Shown piece after piece: positions 2,428 through 48,435 of a stretch of 48,582 nt of DNA (positions are counted from its first letter, which is position 1; each line of letters begins with the position of its first letter). This DNA comes from an uncultured Clostridia bacterium (GTDB lineage Bacteria > Bacillota > Clostridia > TANB77 > CAG-508): contig CAKOWP010000003.1 of the NCBI GenBank assembly GCA_934122385.1, forward strand, positions 1 to 48,582. Reading direction: 5' to 3'. Position numbers and translations under genes: made by a program. Below the pieces are notes generated by a model that was not told the origin of the DNA, searched no databases, and was given only the letters and a program-made list of their open reading frames with translations.

Positions 2428-2533
2428 ACTAAACCTCCTAAAAATTCATTTACAAATATTTTTTCCGCTTTTAGAAAATTTATGCAAAAATTTTCTGGTT
2501 TTTTAATATGTATATATAATTGATTTGCAAGAT

Positions 2534-2891
2534 GCATTATTGAGAGTTAGTTATTGTTTAGGATTATGTTCTTTTGATTGGAGTGAAAGATAGAAAATCT
2601 TAAATAAAAAATGAGGGATGTTCACAAAAAAATGTATATGTTTTGATAATTTTATGATTTTATTACGCAACATAAGAATTTCTAAAATATATTTATGGCA
2701 CCCTTCCACTTTGTGAACTCTTTCCATAAATCTTTTTAAGAAATTCTAATATTGCTTAAATACATTTTAAAATTATCAAAACATATACATTTTTTTCTGA
2801 GTGAAAGAGGCTCATATTTTTATTCTAGATTTTCTTTTTGAACGCAATGAATAGAATATAATCCTAAACAATAGCTAACTCTCAATAATGC
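2534..2891 (+). repeat. Long foldback element, copy A (diverged, no clear termini)
   Basis: 358-bp imperfect palindrome. The outer arm GCATTATTGAGAGTTAGTTATTGTTTAGGATTAT (2534-2567) pairs with 2858-2891 at 33/34. The interior shares blocks with copies B, C and D (GAAAATCTTAAATAAAAAA, ACGCAACATAAGAATTTCTAAAAT, TTTCCATAAAT, AAGAAATTCTAATATTGCT). Orientation is defined relative to copy B. Confidence 0.8.
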
Positions 2892-2996
2892 TCCTACACA
2901 CTAATTATTATAAAAAGTGCATTGCCAAAAAACAAAAAAAGATATATAATCAATAAAAAATAAAGACATGTATTATGAGAAAGGAAAAATATTAAA

Positions 2997-4471: not shown

Positions 4472-6097
4472 ATGTCAACTTGTTTAGGATTATATATAGA
4501 ACAAAACCTAATTAAATATGCAAAAGTTTCAAAAGACAGAGACCAAATAAAAGTAGAATCTTTTGGTGTAAAGTTTTATGATAATCTTGATCAAACAATA
4601 AAACAAATTGTCGAAGAAACATATAGTTATAGAACCCCAATTAGCATAAATTTGTCTGAAGAGATGTACAATTTTTTCCAGGTATTTGCTTTATTAAATA
4701 AAAAGGATTTACCTAAAGCAATAAAGACGGAATTCGAAGCTTATTGTGGCGATAAAAATTATAACCCAAATGTTTTTGAAACAAGATATGCAATTACTCC
4801 GGATACACAGGAAAAGGAAAGATTAAAAGTAATACACATAAGTGAAAATAAAATTGAATTAAATAAAAAAATACAAAAATTTAGTTCATATAGATTGCAA
4901 AATATAATACCAATATCAATGGCAATATCAGATATTACTAAATTTGAGCCAAAAGAAAATTGCTTGATTGTAAATATAGAGGAAAGTACAACTATAACAA
5001 CAATTTTAGATCAAAACATATATGATATCAAAACATTAGATATAGGTAGCCAAGAAATATTGGACAGAATTAATGTAAAAGAGAATTCTTATCAAAAGGC
5101 ATATGAAATATGCAAAGAAACAACAATTTACACTTCAGAAGGAAAAGAACTTACAGAGGAAGAAACTGGCTACTTGGAAGACATAATGCCAACATTATAT
5201 GATATTTTAGGACAGATAAGGAAAATAATAAATGACAGCATGGATAAGATTGAAAAAGTATATATTACTGGAACAGGAGCTTTGATAAACAATATAGATT
5301 TATATTTTGAAGAATACTTAGAAAATGTACACTGCGAAATATTAAAGCCTAGTTTTATAAAAATATCACCTGAAATAAATATAAAAGATTATGTTGAAGT
5401 TAATTCAGCTATATCTTTAGCACTTAGTGGATTAGGACAAGGGATTGCTGGAATGAACTTCAAGAAAACAAGCTTAATGGATAAATTACCAGATATATTA
5501 AAAATGGAAGTTGGCGGAAAGAAGAAGACAACAAAAGAAGATAAAAAATTAAAAAGTAATTTGTTTACAATTGATTTCAATGTACCATTAGATAAAATAG
5601 AAAAGGCGTTATTAAGAAGTTCGATAGGAATATTAATATTGTTTATAGTTTATTCTTCATTTGCAAGTTTAATAAATAAACAAATAGAACTAAAAAAAGA
5701 ACAAGCACAAGAATCAATAAATAACACAAATTCACAAATAGCATTAGTTAATAATGATATTCAAAGTGCACAAAATAAAACTAGTGAATATACAAGTAAA
5801 ATAAATAATTTAGACGAAATTAATAAAAAATTACAAGAAAATAATAGATTAAAAAAATCAATACCAAATTTGTTAAACAAATTAATGTATGTTATGCCAA
5901 ATGAAGTTCAGCTAACATCTATACAAAACACAACATCAACACATATAGAAATACAGGCTCAATCAAAAAGTTATGCGCAATTAGGATATTTAACAGCTAG
6001 CATAAAAACAAATGGAATACTTACAAATGTTATTTCTACTTCTGGACAGAAAGAGAATAATATAGTTACAATAAAGATAGAAGGTGATTTACCATGA
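4472..6097 (+). CDS. pilM: Type IV pilus assembly protein, PilM-PilN fusion
   Basis: N-terminal ~330 aa is actin-like ATPase-fold PilM-like (LGLYIE..., VYITGTGALINN). A TM helix (SSIGILILFIVYSSFASLI) and coiled-coil/PilN-like C-domain follow. First gene of the pil cluster. Confidence 0.7.
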   Translation: MSTCLGLYIEQNLIKYAKVSKDRDQIKVESFGVKFYDNLDQTIKQIVEETYSYRTPISINLSEEMYNFFQVFALLNKKDLPKAIKTEFEAYCGDKNYNPNVFETRYAITPDTQEKERLKVIHISENKIELNKKIQKFSSYRLQNIIPISMAISDITKFEPKENCLIVNIEESTTITTILDQNIYDIKTLDIGSQEILDRINVKENSYQKAYEICKETTIYTSEGKELTEEETGYLEDIMPTLYDILGQIRKIINDSMDKIEKVYITGTGALINNIDLYFEEYLENVHCEILKPSFIKISPEINIKDYVEVNSAISLALSGLGQGIAGMNFKKTSLMDKLPDILKMEVGGKKKTTKEDKKLKSNLFTIDFNVPLDKIEKALLRSSIGILILFIVYSSFASLINKQIELKKEQAQESINNTNSQIALVNNDIQSAQNKTSEYTSKINNLDEINKKLQENNRLKKSIPNLLNKLMYVMPNEVQLTSIQNTTSTHIEIQAQSKSYAQLGYLTASIKTNGILTNVISTSGQKENNIVTIKIEGDLP

Positions 6098-6807
6098 AAA
6101 AATTATTATTAAGCATATTAACTGTTTTAGTTATTATATTAACAGCTATTACTATGATAAAAGGTTTAAAGATTGGTAATATCAATATCTTAGGAATAAT
6201 GGAAATGAAACAGAAAAATGAAGAATTAGATACAACGGTTAAGGAAGCAACAAAATTGGCTAGTACTGATTATCAAAAAAGAATAGATGACTTGAATGAT
6301 GCTGTTAAAAAATTAGAAACAGAAAAAACAAGTTATGAAGATAGAGTTAATGTTAGTACAGAAAACAATGTAGAAGCAGCAAATCAAACTTATGAAAATA
6401 TGATAGAATTCCTATTAGTAAGAATAGAAAACCATGCAAAAACAGAAGGCGTATCAATGAACATGGTTGTAACTCGTAGCTCATCTGGAGCAGAAAATGT
6501 TTACAATCTTAACTTCACTGCAACAGGAAGTTATGTTGGAATAGAAGAATTTGTAACAGATATAGAAGATGATTCAAGATTAGGTTATAAAATCGAAGAA
6601 TTTAAAATGAATTCTTCTTCAGAAGGTGGAGATACAGTACAAGCAACTTTTGTATGCAAAGATATAAAAATAGAAGGAATTTCTTCTAACGCAGCAAGCA
6701 CTTCAACAACTACAGGTATGACAAATACAACGTCTTCAGGAAGTATTGGAGACACAAACACAACGAGTAGTACATCAAATACAACAACTAACAATACTAC
6801 AAAATAA
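6094..6807 (+). CDS. pilO: Type IV pilus assembly protein PilO-like, with Ser/Thr/Asn-rich C-terminal tail
   Basis: N-terminal TM, a coiled coil, then a PilO-like block YNLNFTATGSYVGIEEFVTDIE. Overlaps the pilMN stop (ATGA). The tail is TSTTTGMTNTTSSGSIGDTNTTSSTSNTTTNNTTK. Confidence 0.55.
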   Translation: MKKLLLSILTVLVIILTAITMIKGLKIGNINILGIMEMKQKNEELDTTVKEATKLASTDYQKRIDDLNDAVKKLETEKTSYEDRVNVSTENNVEAANQTYENMIEFLLVRIENHAKTEGVSMNMVVTRSSSGAENVYNLNFTATGSYVGIEEFVTDIEDDSRLGYKIEEFKMNSSSEGGDTVQATFVCKDIKIEGISSNAASTSTTTGMTNTTSSGSIGDTNTTSSTSNTTTNNTTK

Positions 6808-6824
6808 GAAAAGGAGGGAATAAG

Positions 6825-7271
6825 ATGAAAAAAGATATAATAAAAGAAATAATAATAATTTTACTATTAACTCTAGCTATTATATTAATATTAGGTGTAT
6901 TATTATATGAATTTGTGCCAACAAATAAAATAATACCTGAAAAAGTATCTTATACAACTCCGGAAAATGTTAGAGAAGATTTGCAAGCAGCAGAAAATGC
7001 TGGTGATGATAATATAGTTGTAACTTATCAAATCAATGCTACAGATTTAAGCAATTACAAAAAAATCAATGAATATGTACCAGGAAAAAAGAACCCGTTT
7101 GAATCTGTAGAAAGTAATGAAACAACAGAAGATGGAAGTACGGATGCTTCAAACTCACAAGGTGGTACAACTTCAGAAAACACAACAGGGTCAAGTACTG
7201 ACACTAAGACAAATACAAATACAAGTTCAAATTCGGGAACAAGTTATTTGCCTGATAAAGGAACTAAATAA
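6825..7271 (+). CDS. Single-pass membrane protein of unknown function in the pilus operon (Ser/Thr-rich tail)
   Basis: Strong RBS (AAGGAGGGA). One N-terminal TM helix. No motif I recognise. Low-complexity T/S/N C-terminus similar to the PilO tail. Confidence 0.5.
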   Translation: MKKDIIKEIIIILLLTLAIILILGVLLYEFVPTNKIIPEKVSYTTPENVREDLQAAENAGDDNIVVTYQINATDLSNYKKINEYVPGKKNPFESVESNETTEDGSTDASNSQGGTTSENTTGSSTDTKTNTNTSSNSGTSYLPDKGTK

Positions 7272-7354
7272 ATAATTAGTTATTAACATTATATTTATTT
7301 TTATAAATATAGTATATATATATTATATCAAAAGAAAAAGGAGGGAAAAACATA

Positions 7355-7588
7355 ATGAAAAAAGAGCAAAAAGGTATAACACTAGTTGCATTAGTAATTA
7401 CAATAATCATTCTATTAATTTTAGCTGGTATTTCAATTGCTACATTAAGTGGAAGTGGATTATTTGGAAAGGCTAAACAAGCTCAACAAAAATCTGAAAA
7501 TGCACAAGGTATTGAAAACAATACATTGGTAGAATATGAAAACTGGATGGATAACTATTTAGCAGAACCAAAAACAACAAAAAAATAA
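7355..7588 (+). CDS. Short type IV pilin-like protein (77-aa precursor, likely major subunit)
   Basis: Class III-type signal MKKEQKG|ITLVALVITIIILLILAGISIATL. Strong RBS AAAGGAGGG. Its own terminator follows directly (7603-7636). Position +5 is Ala, not Glu. Confidence 0.65.
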   Translation: MKKEQKGITLVALVITIIILLILAGISIATLSGSGLFGKAKQAQQKSENAQGIENNTLVEYENWMDNYLAEPKTTKK

Positions 7589-7602
7589 TTAAAAAACTAA
7601 TA

Positions 7603-7636
7603 GGCATATGCATATACAAATGTATATGCCTTTTAT
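7603..7636 (+). terminator. Intrinsic terminator/attenuator after the pilin gene
   Basis: 10-bp stem GGCATATGCA/TGTATATGCC (one G.T pair), 8-nt loop, followed by TTTTAT. Confidence 0.6.
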
Positions 7637-7665
7637 AAAAAATAAACATAGAAAAGGATACAAAG

Positions 7666-8472
7666 ATGGATATATTTTTTTATATAATAATATTTTTAAT
7701 GGGAATAACTTTTGGAAGCTTTTATACTTTAGCAGTATATAGAATACCAAAAGGAGAGGACATAACACATACACATTCATATTGTCCAAAATGTAATCAT
7801 AAATTAAATATATTAGATTTAATACCACTATTTAGTTATATATTTTTAGGTGGAAAATGTAGATATTGTAAGCAAAAAATAAGACCAAGATATTTTATAT
7901 TAGAAGCAATATCAGGAATATTTTTTGTAGTAATTGCATATCTAACAAAATTAAGCATTTACAATTTACAACCAGAAGTAATTATTGAATATATATTTTT
8001 TATTTTGTATTTTACATTTATAATATTAATGGCAGGAATAGACAAAGAATATAGAACAATAAATAAACCAGTATTAATGTATGGGGTTATAATTTCCATT
8101 ATGTATATAGTATATCTATACATAATAGAAAAAACTAGTATATATAGATATGCTATATATTTAGCATTATTTCTTATCCTTTTATTAATAGATACAATTA
8201 ACTTAAAAAAATATGCAAAGAACAGTTACATATATTCAGTATTAATGGTAATTGTGATAATGGCGATATTCACAGGAGAATATGTAACGATTAATACAAT
8301 ATTAGCAACACTTATATTTATATCAGCATATTTAATTGATAAAAGATTGAAACATTCAAAAAGTAGAAAAACTACAGAACAATTTTATCCACAGTTAAGA
8401 CTTGGATTATATTTATCAATATTTAATGTAATTTCTACAATTGTAGTTTTAGGCGTTTGTAGATTTGTGTAA
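7666..8472 (+). CDS. pilD: Prepilin peptidase (A24 family) PilD-like, divergent
   Basis: N-terminal CPKC...CRYC zinc-finger pair and polytopic membrane body. First Asp motif candidate is LMAGIDKEYRTI. No GxGD motif found by eye. Confidence 0.65.
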   Translation: MDIFFYIIIFLMGITFGSFYTLAVYRIPKGEDITHTHSYCPKCNHKLNILDLIPLFSYIFLGGKCRYCKQKIRPRYFILEAISGIFFVVIAYLTKLSIYNLQPEVIIEYIFFILYFTFIILMAGIDKEYRTINKPVLMYGVIISIMYIVYLYIIEKTSIYRYAIYLALFLILLLIDTINLKKYAKNSYIYSVLMVIVIMAIFTGEYVTINTILATLIFISAYLIDKRLKHSKSRKTTEQFYPQLRLGLYLSIFNVISTIVVLGVCRFV

Positions 8473-8495
8473 AAAATAGAGAGGATGGACTACAT

Positions 8496-8927
8496 ATGTA
8501 TATAAAAGGAGAAAAAGGATTAACAGGCATTGATATAGCAATTTCTATAATTATAATAACTATTTTTATATCTGTATTGGCAAATTTAATAATGAACATA
8601 AATCTGAACTCTGAAAAAACAAAAAGAATGGAGATTGCAACAGCATATGCTGTACAAGAGATAGAACAATTAAAAGCAAAGGGATATGTTGATGAATATA
8701 ACAACAAGGGAGTAGATAAAAAGGATATTATTTCAGAAAAAGATATTATGGATGACGATAACAACTTTACAGGGTATAGCAAGACAACAACAATAAAAGA
8801 TTATGTGTTAATAAAAAACGATAAATCAAAACAAAAGAATGTACTAAAAGAATTAACAGTAACAGTATCTTTTAAGTTAGGAAATATTACTGAAAATATA
8901 GATATATCAACATATATTACGGATTAA
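8496..8927 (+). CDS. Pilin-like (minor pilin candidate) protein
   Basis: N-terminus MYIKGEKG|LTGIDIAISIIIITIFISVL has a short basic leader, Gly, then a hydrophobic helix. Position +5 is Asp. Confidence 0.45.
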   Translation: MYIKGEKGLTGIDIAISIIIITIFISVLANLIMNINLNSEKTKRMEIATAYAVQEIEQLKAKGYVDEYNNKGVDKKDIISEKDIMDDDNNFTGYSKTTTIKDYVLIKNDKSKQKNVLKELTVTVSFKLGNITENIDISTYITD

Positions 8928-8943
8928 TGGAGGAAGTAAATAG

Positions 8944-9402
8944 GTGAAAAATAATAGAGGAATTACACTTACATCTTTAATTATATATGTTATAGGTATG
9001 GTTATAGTAGTTAGCTTGATCGCAACATTGACAACATTTTTTTATAAGAATGTTAATGTTGATAATATAAGCAAAGATACTACACAATATACTAAATTTT
9101 CTAATTTATTTTTAAAGGAAATAAATAAAAAAGATAATGATGTTATTGAGTGTAAAACAATAGAAGAAGATGGACAAAAGGTAAGCTATATAATTTTTTC
9201 TGATGGAAATCAATATACATACAAAGCTGAAAATAAATCAGTTTATAAAAATAATATTAAAATTTGTAAAGATGTTGAAGAATGCGAATTTTCTTATATT
9301 TATATAGATTCGACATATCAAATAAAAATAAATTTTAAAACATCAAGTGTAAATATGACAGGAGACAATGCAATTGTATATAGTATGAAAAACGGTCAAT
9401 AA
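8944..9402 (+). CDS. Pilin-like (minor pilin candidate) protein
   Basis: GTG start after GGAGGA. N-terminus (V)KNNRG|ITLTSLIIYVIGMVIVVSLIATL. Position +5 is Ser. Confidence 0.45.
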   Translation: MKNNRGITLTSLIIYVIGMVIVVSLIATLTTFFYKNVNVDNISKDTTQYTKFSNLFLKEINKKDNDVIECKTIEEDGQKVSYIIFSDGNQYTYKAENKSVYKNNIKICKDVEECEFSYIYIDSTYQIKINFKTSSVNMTGDNAIVYSMKNGQ

Positions 9403-15770: not shown

Positions 15771-15806
15771 TAGTACTTACTTGTAAAAGTGAGTACTGTT
15801 TTTGTA
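15771..15806 (+). terminator. Intrinsic terminator after the transketolase subunit gene
   Basis: Stem AGTACTTAC/GTGAGTACT (one T.G pair) followed by GTTTTTGT. Confidence 0.5.
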
Positions 15807-15809
15807 TGC

Positions 15810-16248
15810 AAGTTGCCACCCTAAGGGTTATTTATATTTGATATTGTACCTATTTGATTGAAGTGAAAAATAGAAAATCTTAAATAAAAAACTGAGGAAT
15901 GCTCACAAAAGAAATGTATATATGTATATGATTTGAAACATTTTCTCGGTTCAATACGCAACATAAGAATTTCTAAAATAAATTGATGGATAATTCCACT
16001 TAGTCCTCGCTTCGCTCGACGTGAACGCTTTCCATAAATTTATTCAAGAAATTCTAATATTGCTCCAATCACATTCGAAAAGTTTAAAATCATATACATA
16101 TATACATTTCTGCCCTAAGTGAGAGAGGCTCAGTTTTGTATTTTAGATTTTCTTTTTAAATGTAATGAACAGGGTACAATATCAAATATATATAACCCTT
16201 AAGATGGCAACTTTTACATAAAAATTTTTTAAGTCTGTGAATTGTAAC
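15810..16248 (+). mobile_element. Long foldback element, copy B (MITE-like, left terminus missing)
   Basis: Arms AAGTTGCCACCCTAAGGGTTATTTATATTTGATATTGTACC (15810-) and GGTACAATATCAAATATATATAACCCTTAAGATGGCAACTT (-16213). The right end continues to ...CTGTGAATTGTAAC (16248), matching the copy C terminus. The interior is near-identical to the reverse complement of copy C (3 differences in a 135-nt stretch I compared). Confidence 0.85.
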
Positions 16249-29622: not shown

Positions 29623-30855
29623 TTATTTGTTTTCATCAATTTTTTCAACTTCTGTAACTTCTACTTTATCAGAAGATTTTTTTGTTTTATTAGGAATGAT
29701 AGCAGTTAATAAAATTCCTAATCCGAATATTGCAATTAATAATGAAATAATTGCACCAATATAAGGAATTTTTGTTAATAATGAGATAACAATAGCAGTC
29801 ACAATTAACATACCAAAAATTCCAGACTTTTTATTAATTTTCAATTTATTACATACATAGTTATTAGCAAAAATTGTAAACAATGATGTAGAAACAACTA
29901 ATGCTAAAATATATAATGATAATATAACTAAAGAAATACTACTTGTTAATTGTAATAATATTAAAATTATACAAGCAACAGGTATAGCAATTAAACCAAG
30001 TAATCCTTTACCAAACACCTTTAAAGAACCTTTTCCAATATATGATTCTGTATTATTTAAGAATTTAGGAGCTAACCATAAACATAGTAACCATACTATT
30101 AATACAAAGGCAATGAAACTACCTAAACTTAATATGTAATCAGCTACAATTGATCTAACTGATTGCTTTGAAGAATCAGAATTATTTTTATAATTTACAG
30201 TTCCGTTTACAGATCCTTCTGGAATAGAAGCTTCATTTTTAGAAGAATACTCTAAATTACCGTAAATAACTCCATTTGAATTTTCGACTGTATTGAAATT
30301 TAATGATGAGCAGTTTACAAAAGCATTTCTTCCAACTGTTCCATTTACATTTAATGTATCACAATTTGCTTTTAAATCTCTATAAACATAACCTTTTGAA
30401 ATAGTTAAAGTATTTGCTAGTGCATAAGCATCATAAACAACACCTTTTATTTCTACAGAATTTGCCATAACAAATAGGTTATTAAAGATATAAGCTTCAT
30501 CGTTTACAATCAAATTTTTTGCCATAATAAAGGCATCTCCACCAATTTGTGAATTGATAGTGACGGTATCAGCGCATACAAAAAGATTTCCATCTACAAT
30601 ATAATCTATAGTGACGTTATCTCCTGTAAGATATACATCACTTTTTTTGTAAGAGTCTTCTTGTGCTTGTGCATTTGCATTTGATTCTGTTGCATTTATT
30701 TCTGTAGAATTTGTATCTACTGGAGTTGTTTCAGATTCTTCTGAAATTGGGACTGCTGTAGATTCATCTTCATTATCCGCAAAAACAAATGTAGAAGAAA
30801 ACAATAATGCAATAATAAGAAAAACTAAAATGATTTTTGTTTTGTTTTTTGTCAT
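29623..30855 (-). CDS. Membrane protein with signal peptide, bactofilin-like beta-helix repeat region and C-terminal polytopic domain
   Basis: Start MTKNKTKIILVFLIIALLFSSTFVFA follows AAAGGAGG. Repeats of the type GDNVTIDYIVDGNLFV..DTVTINSQIGGDAFI..NLIVNDEAYI.. resemble polymer-forming cytoskeletal (bactofilin) beta-helix turns. Four to five TM helices at the C-terminus. Confidence 0.5.
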   Translation of the reverse strand: MTKNKTKIILVFLIIALLFSSTFVFADNEDESTAVPISEESETTPVDTNSTEINATESNANAQAQEDSYKKSDVYLTGDNVTIDYIVDGNLFVCADTVTINSQIGGDAFIMAKNLIVNDEAYIFNNLFVMANSVEIKGVVYDAYALANTLTISKGYVYRDLKANCDTLNVNGTVGRNAFVNCSSLNFNTVENSNGVIYGNLEYSSKNEASIPEGSVNGTVNYKNNSDSSKQSVRSIVADYILSLGSFIAFVLIVWLLCLWLAPKFLNNTESYIGKGSLKVFGKGLLGLIAIPVACIILILLQLTSSISLVILSLYILALVVSTSLFTIFANNYVCNKLKINKKSGIFGMLIVTAIVISLLTKIPYIGAIISLLIAIFGLGILLTAIIPNKTKKSSDKVEVTEVEKIDENK

Positions 30856-30960
30856 TACAAAACCTCCTTTAAAAAATTTTTTATATGCTAAAATCATATA
30901 TCTTTAGTAGGTTTTTGTCAATTCTTTTAGAGTAATTTTTTTGACAATTCTTTTATAGTA

Positions 30961-31433
30961 GTTACAATTCATAGCCTTAGAAAATTTTTGAGTGTAAGTT
31001 GCCACCTTAAGGGTTATATATATTTGATATTGTATCCTATTCATTACGTTTAAAAAGAAAATCTAAAATACAAAACTGAGCCTCTCTCACTCAGACAAGA
31101 ATGTATATATGTATATGATTTTAAACTTTTCGAGTGTAATTGAAGCAATATTAGAATTTCTTAAATAAATTTATGGAAAGCGTTCACGTCGAGCGAAGCG
31201 AGGACTAAGTGGAATAAGCCATCAATTTATTTTAGAAATTCTTATGTTGCGTATTGAACCGAGAAAATGTTTCAAATCATATACATATATACATTTCTTT
31301 TGTGAGTATTCCTCAGTTATTTATTTAAGATTTTCTATTTTTCACTTCAATCAAACGGATACAATATCAAATATATATAACCCTTAAGGTGGCGACTTAC
31401 ACACAAAAACTTCCTAAGGCTGTGAATTGCAAC
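30961..31433 (-). mobile_element. Long foldback element, copy C (complete, MITE-like, with 8-bp target-site duplication)
   Basis: 473 bp. Termini are GTTACAATTCATAGCC... and ...GGCTGTGAATTGCAAC. The terminal 77 nt of the two arms are complementary at 71/77. Flanked by TTATAGTA at 30953-30960 and 31434-31441. Inverted relative to copy B. No ORF. Confidence 0.85.
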
Positions 31434-31532
31434 TTATAGTAAATTTTTTTGACAATATTTCAAAATTATGTTAATATAATAAGTGTATACAAAATTTTAG
31501 TAAATACAAAATTTTAAAGGATGTTGATTTAA

Positions 31533-31802
31533 ATGGATGAAAAAAAATGTATAGAATATTATTTTGATTCTAAACAATATAATAAAAAAGAAATATTGGA
31601 AAATATTGAAAAAGAAAAAAGTGAATTTCCAAAGCAAAAATTTGATGTAAATATTACATTAAATAAATATGGAATATATATTGTTAGATTAGAATGTAAA
31701 AATAATAAAATCGCTGTAGTAAAGCGTAATAGAAAAATTAAACAAAATAAAGTAACTGTATATGGAAAATATAAAGAAACAAAAACATATGCACCAATAT
31801 AA
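31533..31802 (+). CDS. Hypothetical small protein (89 aa)
   Basis: ORF with a plausible RBS (AAAGGATG) and a candidate promoter TTGACA-17-TAATAT at 31449-31477. No recognisable motif. Confidence 0.4.
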   Translation: MDEKKCIEYYFDSKQYNKKEILENIEKEKSEFPKQKFDVNITLNKYGIYIVRLECKNNKIAVVKRNRKIKQNKVTVYGKYKETKTYAPI

Positions 31803-46748: not shown

Positions 46749-48435
46749 ATGAACAAAAAATGGCAAATATATGAGGCAGATACAAAAGAAACAAACAGAA
46801 TAGCAGAGAAATATAAAATAAATAAACTGCTAGCATCAATAATTGTAAATAGAAAAATAAAAGATGAAAATATAGAAATATTTTTACATCCAACAAGACA
46901 AAATTTTCATGATCCATTTTTAATGCCAGATATGAATATTGCGGTAGAGAGAATAATAAAAGCAATAGAAAATAACGAAAAAACAATAATATATGGAGAT
47001 TATGATGTAGATGGAATAACAAGTATAACAGTATTAAAAAGCTTTTTAGAAGATAGAGGATTACATGTAGATTCATATATTCCAAACAGATTAGAAGAAG
47101 GATATGGCTTAAACAAACCAGCCATAGAAAAAATAGCACAAGAAAATTACACTTTAATGATAACAGTTGACACAGGAATTTCTGGAATAGAAGAAATCGA
47201 ATATGCAAATTCTTTAGGAATTGAAACGATAGTAACAGACCATCACGAAGTAGGAGATGAATTGCCAAAAGCACTTGCCGTAGTTGATGCAAAAAGAAAA
47301 GACAATCAATATCCTTGCAGAGATTTGGCGGGAGTTGGTGTTGTATTTAAATTAATACAAGCATTGCGGAAAAAAATTAGAATTAGACGAAAAAGAATAC
47401 TTAAAATACTTAGACATTGTGTGTGTTGGAACAATATCAGATATAGTTCCATTAGTTGATGAAAATAGAGTTATAACAAAATTAGGATTATTACTTGTAG
47501 CGCAAACAAAAAATATGGGCCTAAGGTCATTACTAATGTCTTCAGGGTATAAAAATTTGGACTCAACAACTATATCTTTTGGCGTTGCACCAAGAATAAA
47601 TGCATGTGGAAGAATGGGACATGCAGATGAGGCATTGAAACTATTTTTATCAAAAGATATTTACGAAGTAAATGAACTCACAAAGAAATTAAATGATTAT
47701 AATAAAATGAGACAAGAAAAAGAAAAATCAATTTATGAAGATGCAGTAAATCAAATTGAAAAGAACAAGTTATATGAAAATTGTGCAATAGTTGTTGGTG
47801 GAGATAATTGGCATCATGGAGTTATTGGAATTGTATCTTCAAAAATAACAGATTTGTATTTTAAACCAAGTATTTTATTGTGTTATGACAACGAATTAGC
47901 AAAAGGCTCAGGTAGAAGCATTCCAGGTTTTGACTTGCATGATGCATTAATGAAATGCCAAGATACAATTGAAAAATTTGGTGGACACAGTATGGCAATA
48001 GGAATTACAATTAAAAAGGACAATTTTGATAAGTTTGCAAAAGAACTTGAACATATTGCAAAAGATTCAAAAATAGATGAAATTATTCCTATCATAAATG
48101 TTGACGCAAAAATCAATTTAAACGAAGTAAGTAGAGAAACTGTTGAAAGTTTGAAACAACTAGAACCATTTGGTGAAGGAAATAAGACACCAATATTTGC
48201 ATTGAAAAATTTGAAAGTTGATTCTATTAGAAGTTTGTCAGAAGGTAAACATATAAAAATGACTTTAAAAGATGGTAATTCTGTTGTAAATGCAATAGGT
48301 TTTAATTTAGGTTATTTAGCAGATGAATATAGAATTGGTGACAAGATTGATGTTGTTGGAACTTTGGAAATTAATAGTTTTAATGGGGTTGATAGTTTAC
48401 AAATTAATATTAAAGATGTTATGAAGTCAATATAA
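46749..48435 (+). pseudogene. recJ: Single-stranded-DNA exonuclease RecJ, interrupted by a 1-nt frameshift in an A7 run
   Basis: ORF 46749-47459 carries DHH motifs (IIYGDYDVDGITS, TVDTG, IVTDHH, LAGVGVVFKLIQAL). ORF 47419-48435, one base out of frame (+1 relative to the first), continues with VGTISDIVPLVDENR ... GGHSMAIG (DHHA1). The frames join if one A is removed from A7 at 47370-47376, giving ...QALRKKLELDEKEYLKYLDIVCVGTISD.... Confidence 0.8.

Follow-up and report, generated by a model that had tools for sequence, protein, structure and literature searches.

The element and the genes around it

The 48.6-kb window analyzed here (the whole 48,582-nucleotide stretch of contig CAKOWP010000003.1, from an uncultured Clostridia bacterium) contains a 473-bp foldback element, copy C, which we assign to a family of transposable elements of the miniature inverted-repeat kind (MITEs). 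It lies between two divergent genes: a DUF8173 membrane-protein gene on its left (29623-30855, minus strand) and, on its right, an open reading frame (ORF) of 89 amino acids (31533-31802, plus strand). The parts of copy C, its flanking target-site duplication (TSD) and the promoter-like sites on either side are as follows.

30961-31433, plus strand: copy C, complete foldback MITE of 473 bp, type I subfamily, aligned end to end with 22 other two-ended copies
30961-30975, plus strand: left terminal inverted repeat (TIR), GTTACAATTCATAGC; family consensus GTTACAATTCACAGC
31419-31433, minus strand: right TIR, reading GTTGCAATTCACAGC on that strand
30953-30960, no strand: left copy of the TSD, 8 bp, TTATAGTA
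31434-31441, no strand: right copy of the TSD, 8 bp, TTATAGTA
31180-31212, plus strand: asymmetric GC-rich apex, GCGTTCACGTCGAGCGAAGCGAGGACTAAGTGG, in the long form containing GCGAAGC (the type II form is 17 nt shorter)
30893-30921, minus strand: promoter-like site of the DUF8173 gene (TTGACA, 17 nt, TATGAT; consensus scan), intact, 40 bp left of the element
31449-31477, plus strand: promoter-like site of the 89-amino-acid ORF (TTGACA, 17 nt, TAATAT, with an upstream TG; consensus scan), intact, 16 bp right of the element

Copy C starts with GTTACAATTCATAGCC at 30961 and ends with GGCTGTGAATTGCAAC at 31433, and TTATAGTA stands directly outside both termini. Given the base composition of the window, whose GC content is 27.5% over its whole length, the chance of an identical 8-mer abutting both ends is about 9e-5. 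The sequence-only reading that preceded this study had described a 473-bp element with a perfect 8-bp flanking repeat, and its coordinates and sequence were verified exactly. It had also counted 71 complementary positions in the outer 77 nt of the arms, with transitions making up five of the six mismatches; we recomputed both values and obtained the same result. Its further statement, that the whole element forms one long imperfect hairpin with a GC-rich apex, was confirmed by folding. As single-stranded DNA (473 nt), copy C reached -122.6 kcal/mol, against -36.0 +/- 4.1 kcal/mol for shuffled sequences (z = -21.3), and none of the 100 shuffles equaled it.

The element has no conserved ORF. The longest stop-free stretches in copy C span 59-72 codons and are not conserved between it and the consensus. 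A search of the window against Rfam 15 gave no match at the gathering threshold, and the sole match at a relaxed threshold (E up to 1) was a nematode snoRNA with E = 0.13.

The ends were compared in 25 copies from related genomes that have both termini. The TIR consensus GTTACAATTCACAGC was present at both ends of these copies, with a conserved length of 13-15 bp. Direct repeats of 8 bp flanked most of them; they were perfect in nine and matched at seven of eight positions in another seven. Every duplicated sequence was different and most were A+T-rich, as in TTGAGTAT, TATATTTT, TTATTTTG, ACAAAACC, TTTTATTT, ACAATTTT, and TACCATTT; a further copy in L025 has the perfect flanking repeat AAACTGCC. 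An insertion can fall only a few bp away from the end of a gene. The stop codon of a gene is part of the duplicated octamer CAAAATAA in L028, and L019, from a different species with about 80% identity, has no element at the matching site.

Our results support the conclusion that copy C is a complete non-autonomous foldback transposon and that the 8-bp repeat around it is a TSD. The family combines the features by which MITEs are recognized: small size with no transposase gene, conserved TIRs, a TSD of fixed length and variable sequence, and dispersed copies at differing sites. That the octamer is a TSD had been proposed from copy C itself, and it is borne out at the family level by 16 of the 25 copies (perfect or 7/8).

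Both promoter-like sites also exist in alleles that lack the element, and copy C sits between two intact divergent promoters, as predicted by the consensus scan. We also observed a hybrid promoter-like site on the plus strand (TTGACA at 30941, 16 nt, TACAAT at 30963-30968; score 11/12) that reads into the element, with its -35 hexamer in the duplicated flank (unit 2, described below) and its -10 hexamer within the left TIR. TACAAT is always present in the TIR consensus.

Alleles of the locus and the age of the insertion

Orthologous contigs were collected through an exact look-up of the 89-amino-acid ORF product, and more were added through look-ups of DUF8173 homologs. Three types of allele were found: element-bearing, internally deleted, and element-free. 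The window, L001, and L183 bear the element, and the contigs of the last two end inside it. The L003 type (L003, L010, and L011) has the same junctions as the window and TTATAGTA on both sides, with about 313 bp missing. In this type, whose allele of copy C lies at about 2730-2900 (orthologous to 30961-31433), the deletion has removed the apex together with most of the right arm, and a few nt of filler, TGTAAC, stand at the junction. Twelve alleles are element-free (L002, L004-L009, L180-L182, L184, and others). The locus is polymorphic.

Between the window and the element-free alleles the difference is 508 bp, not the 481 bp (473 + 8) of an element plus one octamer. The empty site that had been predicted (...CTTTTATAGTAAATTTTTTTG...) was not found among them. 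A metagenome scan for it gave no hits, which carries almost no weight, as a control scan showed the collection to hold only one contig of the locus. The difference of 508 bp involves a tandem duplication, whose parts are listed here.

30923-30948, no strand: unit 1 of the tandem duplication (26/27 bp), TCTTTTAGAGTAATTTTTTTGACAAT; the sole unit in element-free alleles and the outgroup
30949-31456, no strand: segment of 508 bp that element-free alleles lack; unit 2 (TCTTTTATAGTA...AATTTTTTTGACAAT) with the element and TSD inside it
30934-30948, no strand: left 15-bp direct repeat, AATTTTTTTGACAAT, candidate deletion endpoint
31442-31456, no strand: right 15-bp direct repeat, AATTTTTTTGACAAT, candidate deletion endpoint

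Unit 2 reads TCTTTTATAGTAAATTTTTTTGACAAT, and the element with its duplicated TTATAGTA lies inside it. Two units are present in all element-bearing alleles; the empty alleles and both outgroup lineages, none of which has the element, carry a single unit. When 30949-31456 was removed in silico, the empty allele was obtained except for three single nucleotide polymorphisms (SNPs). The motif TTTTTTTGACAAT, found on both sides of copy C (30936-30948 and 31444-31456), is part of the 15-bp repeat AATTTTTTTGACAAT. Its occurrence on both sides had been read as an insertion separating two promoter-like sequences; the motif is indeed there twice, but the two occurrences are the two units of the tandem duplication and not a pair of promoters driven apart. 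The same reading had named a local duplication as a possible origin of the octamer. The 26/27-bp duplication is real, but it does not explain the octamer: it provides one octamer per unit, and unit 2 has two identical ones exactly at the element ends, so the 8-bp repeat is additional to the duplication.

All element-bearing alleles have one junction in common, which indicates a single insertion. With the sister lineage L166 as outgroup, 14 derived sites united the L003 type with the empty alleles, four of them within about 300 bp of the element, and none united the two element-bearing alleles. In an outgroup-rooted neighbor-joining tree of about 1.9 kb of flank, the window allele was basal, the L003 type stood beside one group of empty alleles, and L183 was nested in a second group, so that element-bearing alleles occur on all three main branches. 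The simplest reading of this comparison is that the insertion would be old and that deletion between the direct repeats on its two sides would have removed the palindrome on more than one occasion. The distribution suggests that the empty alleles are secondary losses (or products of recombination) and not pre-insertion sites. A second indication that the palindrome is unstable is the deletion inside the element in the L003 type.

It is possible, if on the whole doubtful, that the empty alleles are instead ancestral and were never occupied, and that the element-bearing allele, with its duplication and MITE, spread by homologous recombination without any deletion. The single unit and missing element of the outgroup lineages fit this explanation. 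So does a derived SNP, about 75 bp to the left of the element, which is found in the window and in L183 but not in the L003 type, a pattern that shows a mosaic local history. Nevertheless, such a spread would call for three or more transfers into backgrounds that have diverged, with breakpoints no farther than a few hundred bp from the element, and the 14 derived sites group the L003 type with empty alleles while none group the element-bearing ones. Direct repeats around a long palindrome are, moreover, a classic substrate for deletion. Whether by loss or by recombination, the locus is not evidence of recent transposition. The sequence-only reading had considered it the best evidence that the family was recently mobile; the rooted comparison points the other way, to an old insertion with empty alleles as losses.

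The family and its co-varying arms

Three relatives of copy C were found within the window by blastn, which gives four family members in 48.6 kb.

15798-16248, minus strand: copy B, of the same subfamily and 93% identical to copy C; about 24 nt of one terminus are gone, leaving one TIR and no TSD
2511-2912, minus strand: copy A, a 402-bp palindromic relative that shares positions 69-395 of copy C at 75% identity
13638-13859, minus strand: copy D, a 222-bp palindrome with the apex-proximal core only (positions 175-299 of copy C, 125 bp, 90% identity)

The outer arms of copy A are unlike those of copy C and those of copy D are unrelated to them, but in each case the two arms are complementary to each other. 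Copy A has no recognizable family TIR and no TSD, and copy D has neither TIR nor TSD. Both copies could be older subfamilies, or the core could have combined with different shells. We looked for polymorphism of copies B and D, and each was present in every other contig examined: copy B in all three, and copy D with the same 297-bp upstream spacing in L164 and L177-L179. The same was true of copy A, which has an ortholog in L053.

A scan with a 21-mer from the core, in one genome per species, returned 51 DNA stretches, nearly all in low-GC gut "Clostridium sp." or in metagenome-assembled genomes (MAGs) of Clostridia, among them CAG:575, CAG:343, UMGS1516, and a bin from SRR17382094. The full-length element aligned with most of these loci at 83%-94% identity, and identity between copies within a subfamily is about 91%. 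Copy positions differ within the same intergenic regions between related species; L040, for example, holds a copy where the window has just a 42-bp spacer. No match to the element was found by blastn in plasmid and phage collections. The core 21-mer had no match among viral contigs, and the 15-nt TIR gave 101 single matches there with no further similarity to the element, hence chance matches.

In the window are genes for SpoVA, SpoIID, and RecA, type IV pilus genes, and a sigma-factor operon of the spoIIA type, which indicate that its host is a spore-forming member of the Clostridia. The family, of about 460-480 bp, occurs in a group of uncultured, spore-forming, low-GC gut Clostridia. A literature search for the TIR string and for similar MITEs yielded no description of it, and the family appears to be undescribed, although as a kind of element it is ordinary.

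Some copies and contigs deserve separate mention. An otherwise complete copy in L012 (7502-8000) has inverted, not direct, flanking repeats (GAAGAAAG / CTTTCTTC); its palindrome runs 12 bp past the TIRs and it has no recognizable TSD. In L023 (about 930), a copy without its left TIR adjoins the apparent 3' end of a tRNA gene (...GGTTCGAGTCC...CACCA). Contigs L001 and L183 are not alone in ending inside an element, as several of the 8-kb stretches among L014, L020, L037, L042, and L049 have one of their ends within a copy. It is probable that short-read assemblies are broken by the family and that counts based on MAGs understate its copy number.

To follow the arms through the family, 23 two-ended copies were aligned. 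They had been picked through the core 21-mer, which to some degree inflates the apparent conservation of the core. The consensus has 150 predicted pairs, 54 of which show changes on both sides that keep the pair, and 97.4% of the cells are paired. None of 500 shuffles reached the observed values, and when partners were slid by 1-3 columns only 12-19 such pairs remained. The both-sided changes cluster in the outer stems, where columns 14-87 of the alignment pair with 410-483, and they separate three subfamilies that follow host lineage: I (the window's species and close relatives), II (with the shorter apex), and III. The outer stems are 57%-69% identical between subfamilies, the TIRs about 83%, and the inner 300 bp or so (columns 98-400, apex indel counted) 85%-87%. 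Because nearly the whole element is a hairpin and its arms change together between host-specific subfamilies, arm complementarity itself appears, from these alignments, to be maintained.

Candidate causes of this co-variation are selection on a folded intermediate or transcript, correction of one arm by the other, and co-evolving long subterminal protein-binding sites. We hold it to be rather unlikely that the hairpin itself, and not just its 15-bp ends, is the selected unit, either through fold-mediated copying of the arms during propagation or repair, or with the nearly invariant inner 300 bp or so, GC-rich apex included, serving as an RNA or DNA module recruited by the host and moved within a transposon shell. 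If this were true, arm copying through a single-strand or cruciform intermediate would explain the roughly 25 outer-stem pairs that changed on both sides.

Compared with L003 and L183, the six arm mismatches of copy C (30961-31037) are mostly in the left arm of the window. The left arm of the L003 type equals the window's right arm at positions 4, 12, 24, 31, and 40, from which it follows that the arms were nearly perfect when inserted. Three of the left-arm states of the window, A4, A24, and T40, are those of the family consensus, which hints that they may have come by gene conversion from another copy rather than by random mutation.

A related explanation, to which we attach little probability, is that the hairpin is primarily a structured nucleic acid with a function in the host, such as double-stranded RNA for RNase III, a terminator or insulator, or a protein-binding cruciform, and that transposition only spread it; the functional module would then be the invariant inner 300 bp or so. 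The inner part is more conserved between subfamilies than the outer stems (85%-87% vs. 57%-69%), and complementarity is preserved by both-sided changes, as this explanation would expect; it could also draw on the outward-pointing terminator-like hairpin with T run in the left arm and on the TTGACA-16-TACAAT site reading into copy C. On the other side, RNA folding revealed no strand asymmetry: 16 of the 25 copies favor one strand, and the energies differ by 3 kcal/mol on average. Nor is there an orientation bias relative to neighboring genes (between tandem genes, 10 copies are opposed and five co-oriented) or a match in Rfam. In most strains the locus works with the element absent, and the selection of copies by the core 21-mer inflates the conservation of the core.

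The terminator-like hairpin just mentioned, CTGAGTGAGAGAGGCTCAG followed by a T run, occupies 31076-31094 on the minus strand. This segment is invariant across subfamilies and forms the main asymmetric bulge of the large hairpin. A strand-specific RNA was considered and is unsupported, since the strand energies are not consistently different and orientation is unbiased, despite an excess of G-U over A-C cells (136 vs. 34). The apex heptamer GCGAAGC, which is reported to be an unusually stable DNA mini-hairpin, was not borne out as such by folding and is only a lead: with nearest-neighbor energies neither it nor the short form, C-GAGA-G, did better than shuffles. The apex (31193-31199; columns 239-256 of alignment A1) occurs in two forms, the long one and one 17 nt shorter that reads CACG-AGAG-TG. 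Variants of the heptamer are ACGAAGT, changed on both sides, in L024, L041, and L048, and GCGAAGT in L031.

Mode of movement and comparison with known systems

Taken together, these data make it very probable that copy C is a MITE moved by a transposase that bound its TIRs in trans and cut with an 8-bp stagger, and that it derives from a single old insertion followed by losses of the palindrome. In the proposed course of events, a transposase supplied in trans would bind both GTTACAATTCACAGC ends; the target would be cut with an 8-bp stagger, the element joined, and the gaps repaired to give the 8-bp duplication. The element would have entered unit 2 of the 26/27-bp tandem duplication between the divergent promoters, leaving both intact, in one old event common to at least three diverged haplotypes. 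The palindrome would then have been unstable: one lineage would have lost 313 bp internally, and the element-free alleles would, most simply, have arisen by deletions of 508 bp between the 15-bp direct repeats on either side, which in each case brought back the one-unit configuration. Most likely the enzyme was a DDE transposase, since a footprint of staggered cuts excludes recombinases of the HUH, serine, and tyrosine kinds. Insertion by a DDE transposase had been put forward by the sequence-only reading as well. Its footprint of TIRs and TSD stands; the DDE assignment is drawn from that footprint, and no transposase partner was found.

Several points weigh against this reconstruction. Searches of the window (Pfam, about 40 ORFs), of the 51 related loci, and of the collections of plasmids, phages, and viral contigs found no transposase or autonomous element that has these ends. 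The exact pre-insertion site, with two units and a single TTATAGTA (junction GACAATTCTTTTATAGTAAATTTTTTTGACAAT), is absent among the 12 element-free alleles. No new insertion specific to a strain was seen, which leaves present activity unproven. Since copies A and D have neither the TIR nor the TSD of the family, this route was not the one taken by every relative of the core. Finally, recombination among strains could distort the tree on which the loss scenario is built, and transfer of an element-bearing or empty allele by homologous recombination explains the same pattern.

The search for a partner covered several kinds of evidence. The Pfam scan of the window's ORFs identified housekeeping, sporulation, and pilus genes, with no transposase and no RAYT-like gene. 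The autonomous element with matching ends that the sequence-only reading proposed to look for turned up neither in the window nor in the 51 related loci. Solo TIRs and widely spaced TIR pairs were also sought in those loci; there were three solo hits only, none beside a candidate transposase. The hit in L017 resembles a short terminal remnant, and the other two are chance-like, one of them within a terminator hairpin. An all-against-all comparison of the loci for other repeated segments revealed orthologous synteny only.

Mobilization of a hairpin repeat as single-stranded DNA by an HUH-type enzyme (REP/REPIN with RAYT, or IS200/IS605-derived) is highly improbable. The element is palindromic over its full length, its arms co-vary as hairpin-dependent systems require, and no DDE partner was found; but such systems leave no TSD and have no comparable TIRs, an 8-bp duplication flanks most intact copies of this family, and 470 bp far exceeds REP units. 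REP/REPIN elements are palindromes or doublets of about 20-40 bp, make no target duplication, and are associated with RAYT. They are ruled out here by the 473-bp size, the 8-bp duplication, and the lack of a RAYT-like gene in the window. Palindrome-associated elements derived from IS200/IS605 have subterminal hairpins, no TIR, and no target duplication, and are ruled out by the TIRs and the 8-bp TSD. REP systems have been reviewed (PMC3184786).

It is scarcely credible that TTATAGTA is not a TSD but part of the local tandem duplication, with the element having arrived otherwise, for instance by recombination: the extra 26/27-bp unit of the element-bearing alleles, the difference of 508 bp with 15-bp repeats in place of 481 bp with 8 bp, and a third related octamer, TTAGAGTA at 30927-30934, could be cited for it, but a tandem duplication gives one TTA(G/T)AGTA per unit whereas unit 2 has two, exactly at the element ends, and 15 other copies, where the sequences are unrelated and no tandem repeats adjoin, show the same 8-bp geometry.

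Beyond the locus, the analysis adds a documented MITE family, with TIRs, TSDs, subfamilies, and population polymorphism, for the poorly known uncultured gut Clostridia. Its copies occur about once per 12 kb in the window, probably break short-read assemblies, and adjoin promoters and gene ends; their presence or absence can be used as a strain marker. A caution also follows. Loss of a long palindrome that has short direct repeats on both flanks can leave a sequence that mimics the pre-insertion site, so "empty" alleles can mislead and need not be pre-insertion sites. The co-variation of the arms, set against the conserved core, poses the question of what keeps a full-length hairpin in a TIR transposon.

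Other features were noted around the locus and elsewhere in the window. In the sister lineage L166-L173, whose DUF8173 protein is 91%-92% identical, a gene for a 48-amino-acid peptide of the SCIFF family (six-cysteine peptide) lies between the DUF8173 gene and the 89-amino-acid ORF; the window's species is without it. A lineage with an 82% identical DUF8173 protein lacks the 89-amino-acid ORF altogether. RecJ-like domains are split over overlapping ORFs (DHH at 46749-47459; DHHA1 and RecJ_OB at 47419-48435), and this split may be genuine or may come from a frameshift or an error of sequencing. Five ORFs at 4472-9402, beside prepilin peptidase and T2SSE/T2SSF genes, have no Pfam match at E <= 1e-5, although one of them has a PilN hit that is weak; their products are probably pilins or proteins of pilus assembly that have diverged.

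Among known repeats, the Correia elements of Neisseria and the ERIC/IRU elements of enterobacteria are about 100-160 bp long, duplicate TA, and can carry promoter- or terminator-like signals that alter the expression of neighbors. The copy C family resembles them as abundant intergenic, palindromic, MITE-like repeats and differs in its length of about 470 bp and its variable 8-bp duplication. A "long" clostridial group of IS6-like elements (ISCpe7, ISCbo1, and ISTps1) makes 8-bp duplications (PMC6807381). The duplication length and the Clostridia host are shared, but this is only a lead, and no transposase gene was found near any copy. A MITE derived from IS6/IS26 itself was rejected: the duplication length fits, but the termini GTTACAATTCACAGC are unlike the classical TIR consensus GGTTCTGTTGCAAA (PMC6807381).

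Very stable long stem-loops are a classic feature of MITEs, with Chunjie and bcr1 as examples (PMC3184786). The bcr1 element of the Bacillus cereus group is about 155 bp long, has 5-bp direct repeats, is transcribed, and shows compensatory base-pair changes (PMC3184786). Like copy C, it is a non-autonomous element of Firmicutes with a non-conserved genomic distribution, short flanking repeats, and compensatory changes that keep the double strand; the copy C family differs in its 8-bp duplication and a hairpin three times longer, and bcr1 is known to be transcribed. The Chunjie MITEs of Geobacter uraniireducens, a delta-proteobacterium, measure 178-235 bp, with 21-bp TIRs, 9-bp repeats, and stem-loops of -98 to -130 kcal/mol (PMC3184786). 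The copy C family, likened to them by description only, differs in its length of about 470 bp, TIRs of about 15 bp, 8-bp repeats, and Clostridia hosts, and it shares with them an A+T-rich, non-coding sequence, TIRs, direct repeats of similar length, and a very stable long stem-loop.

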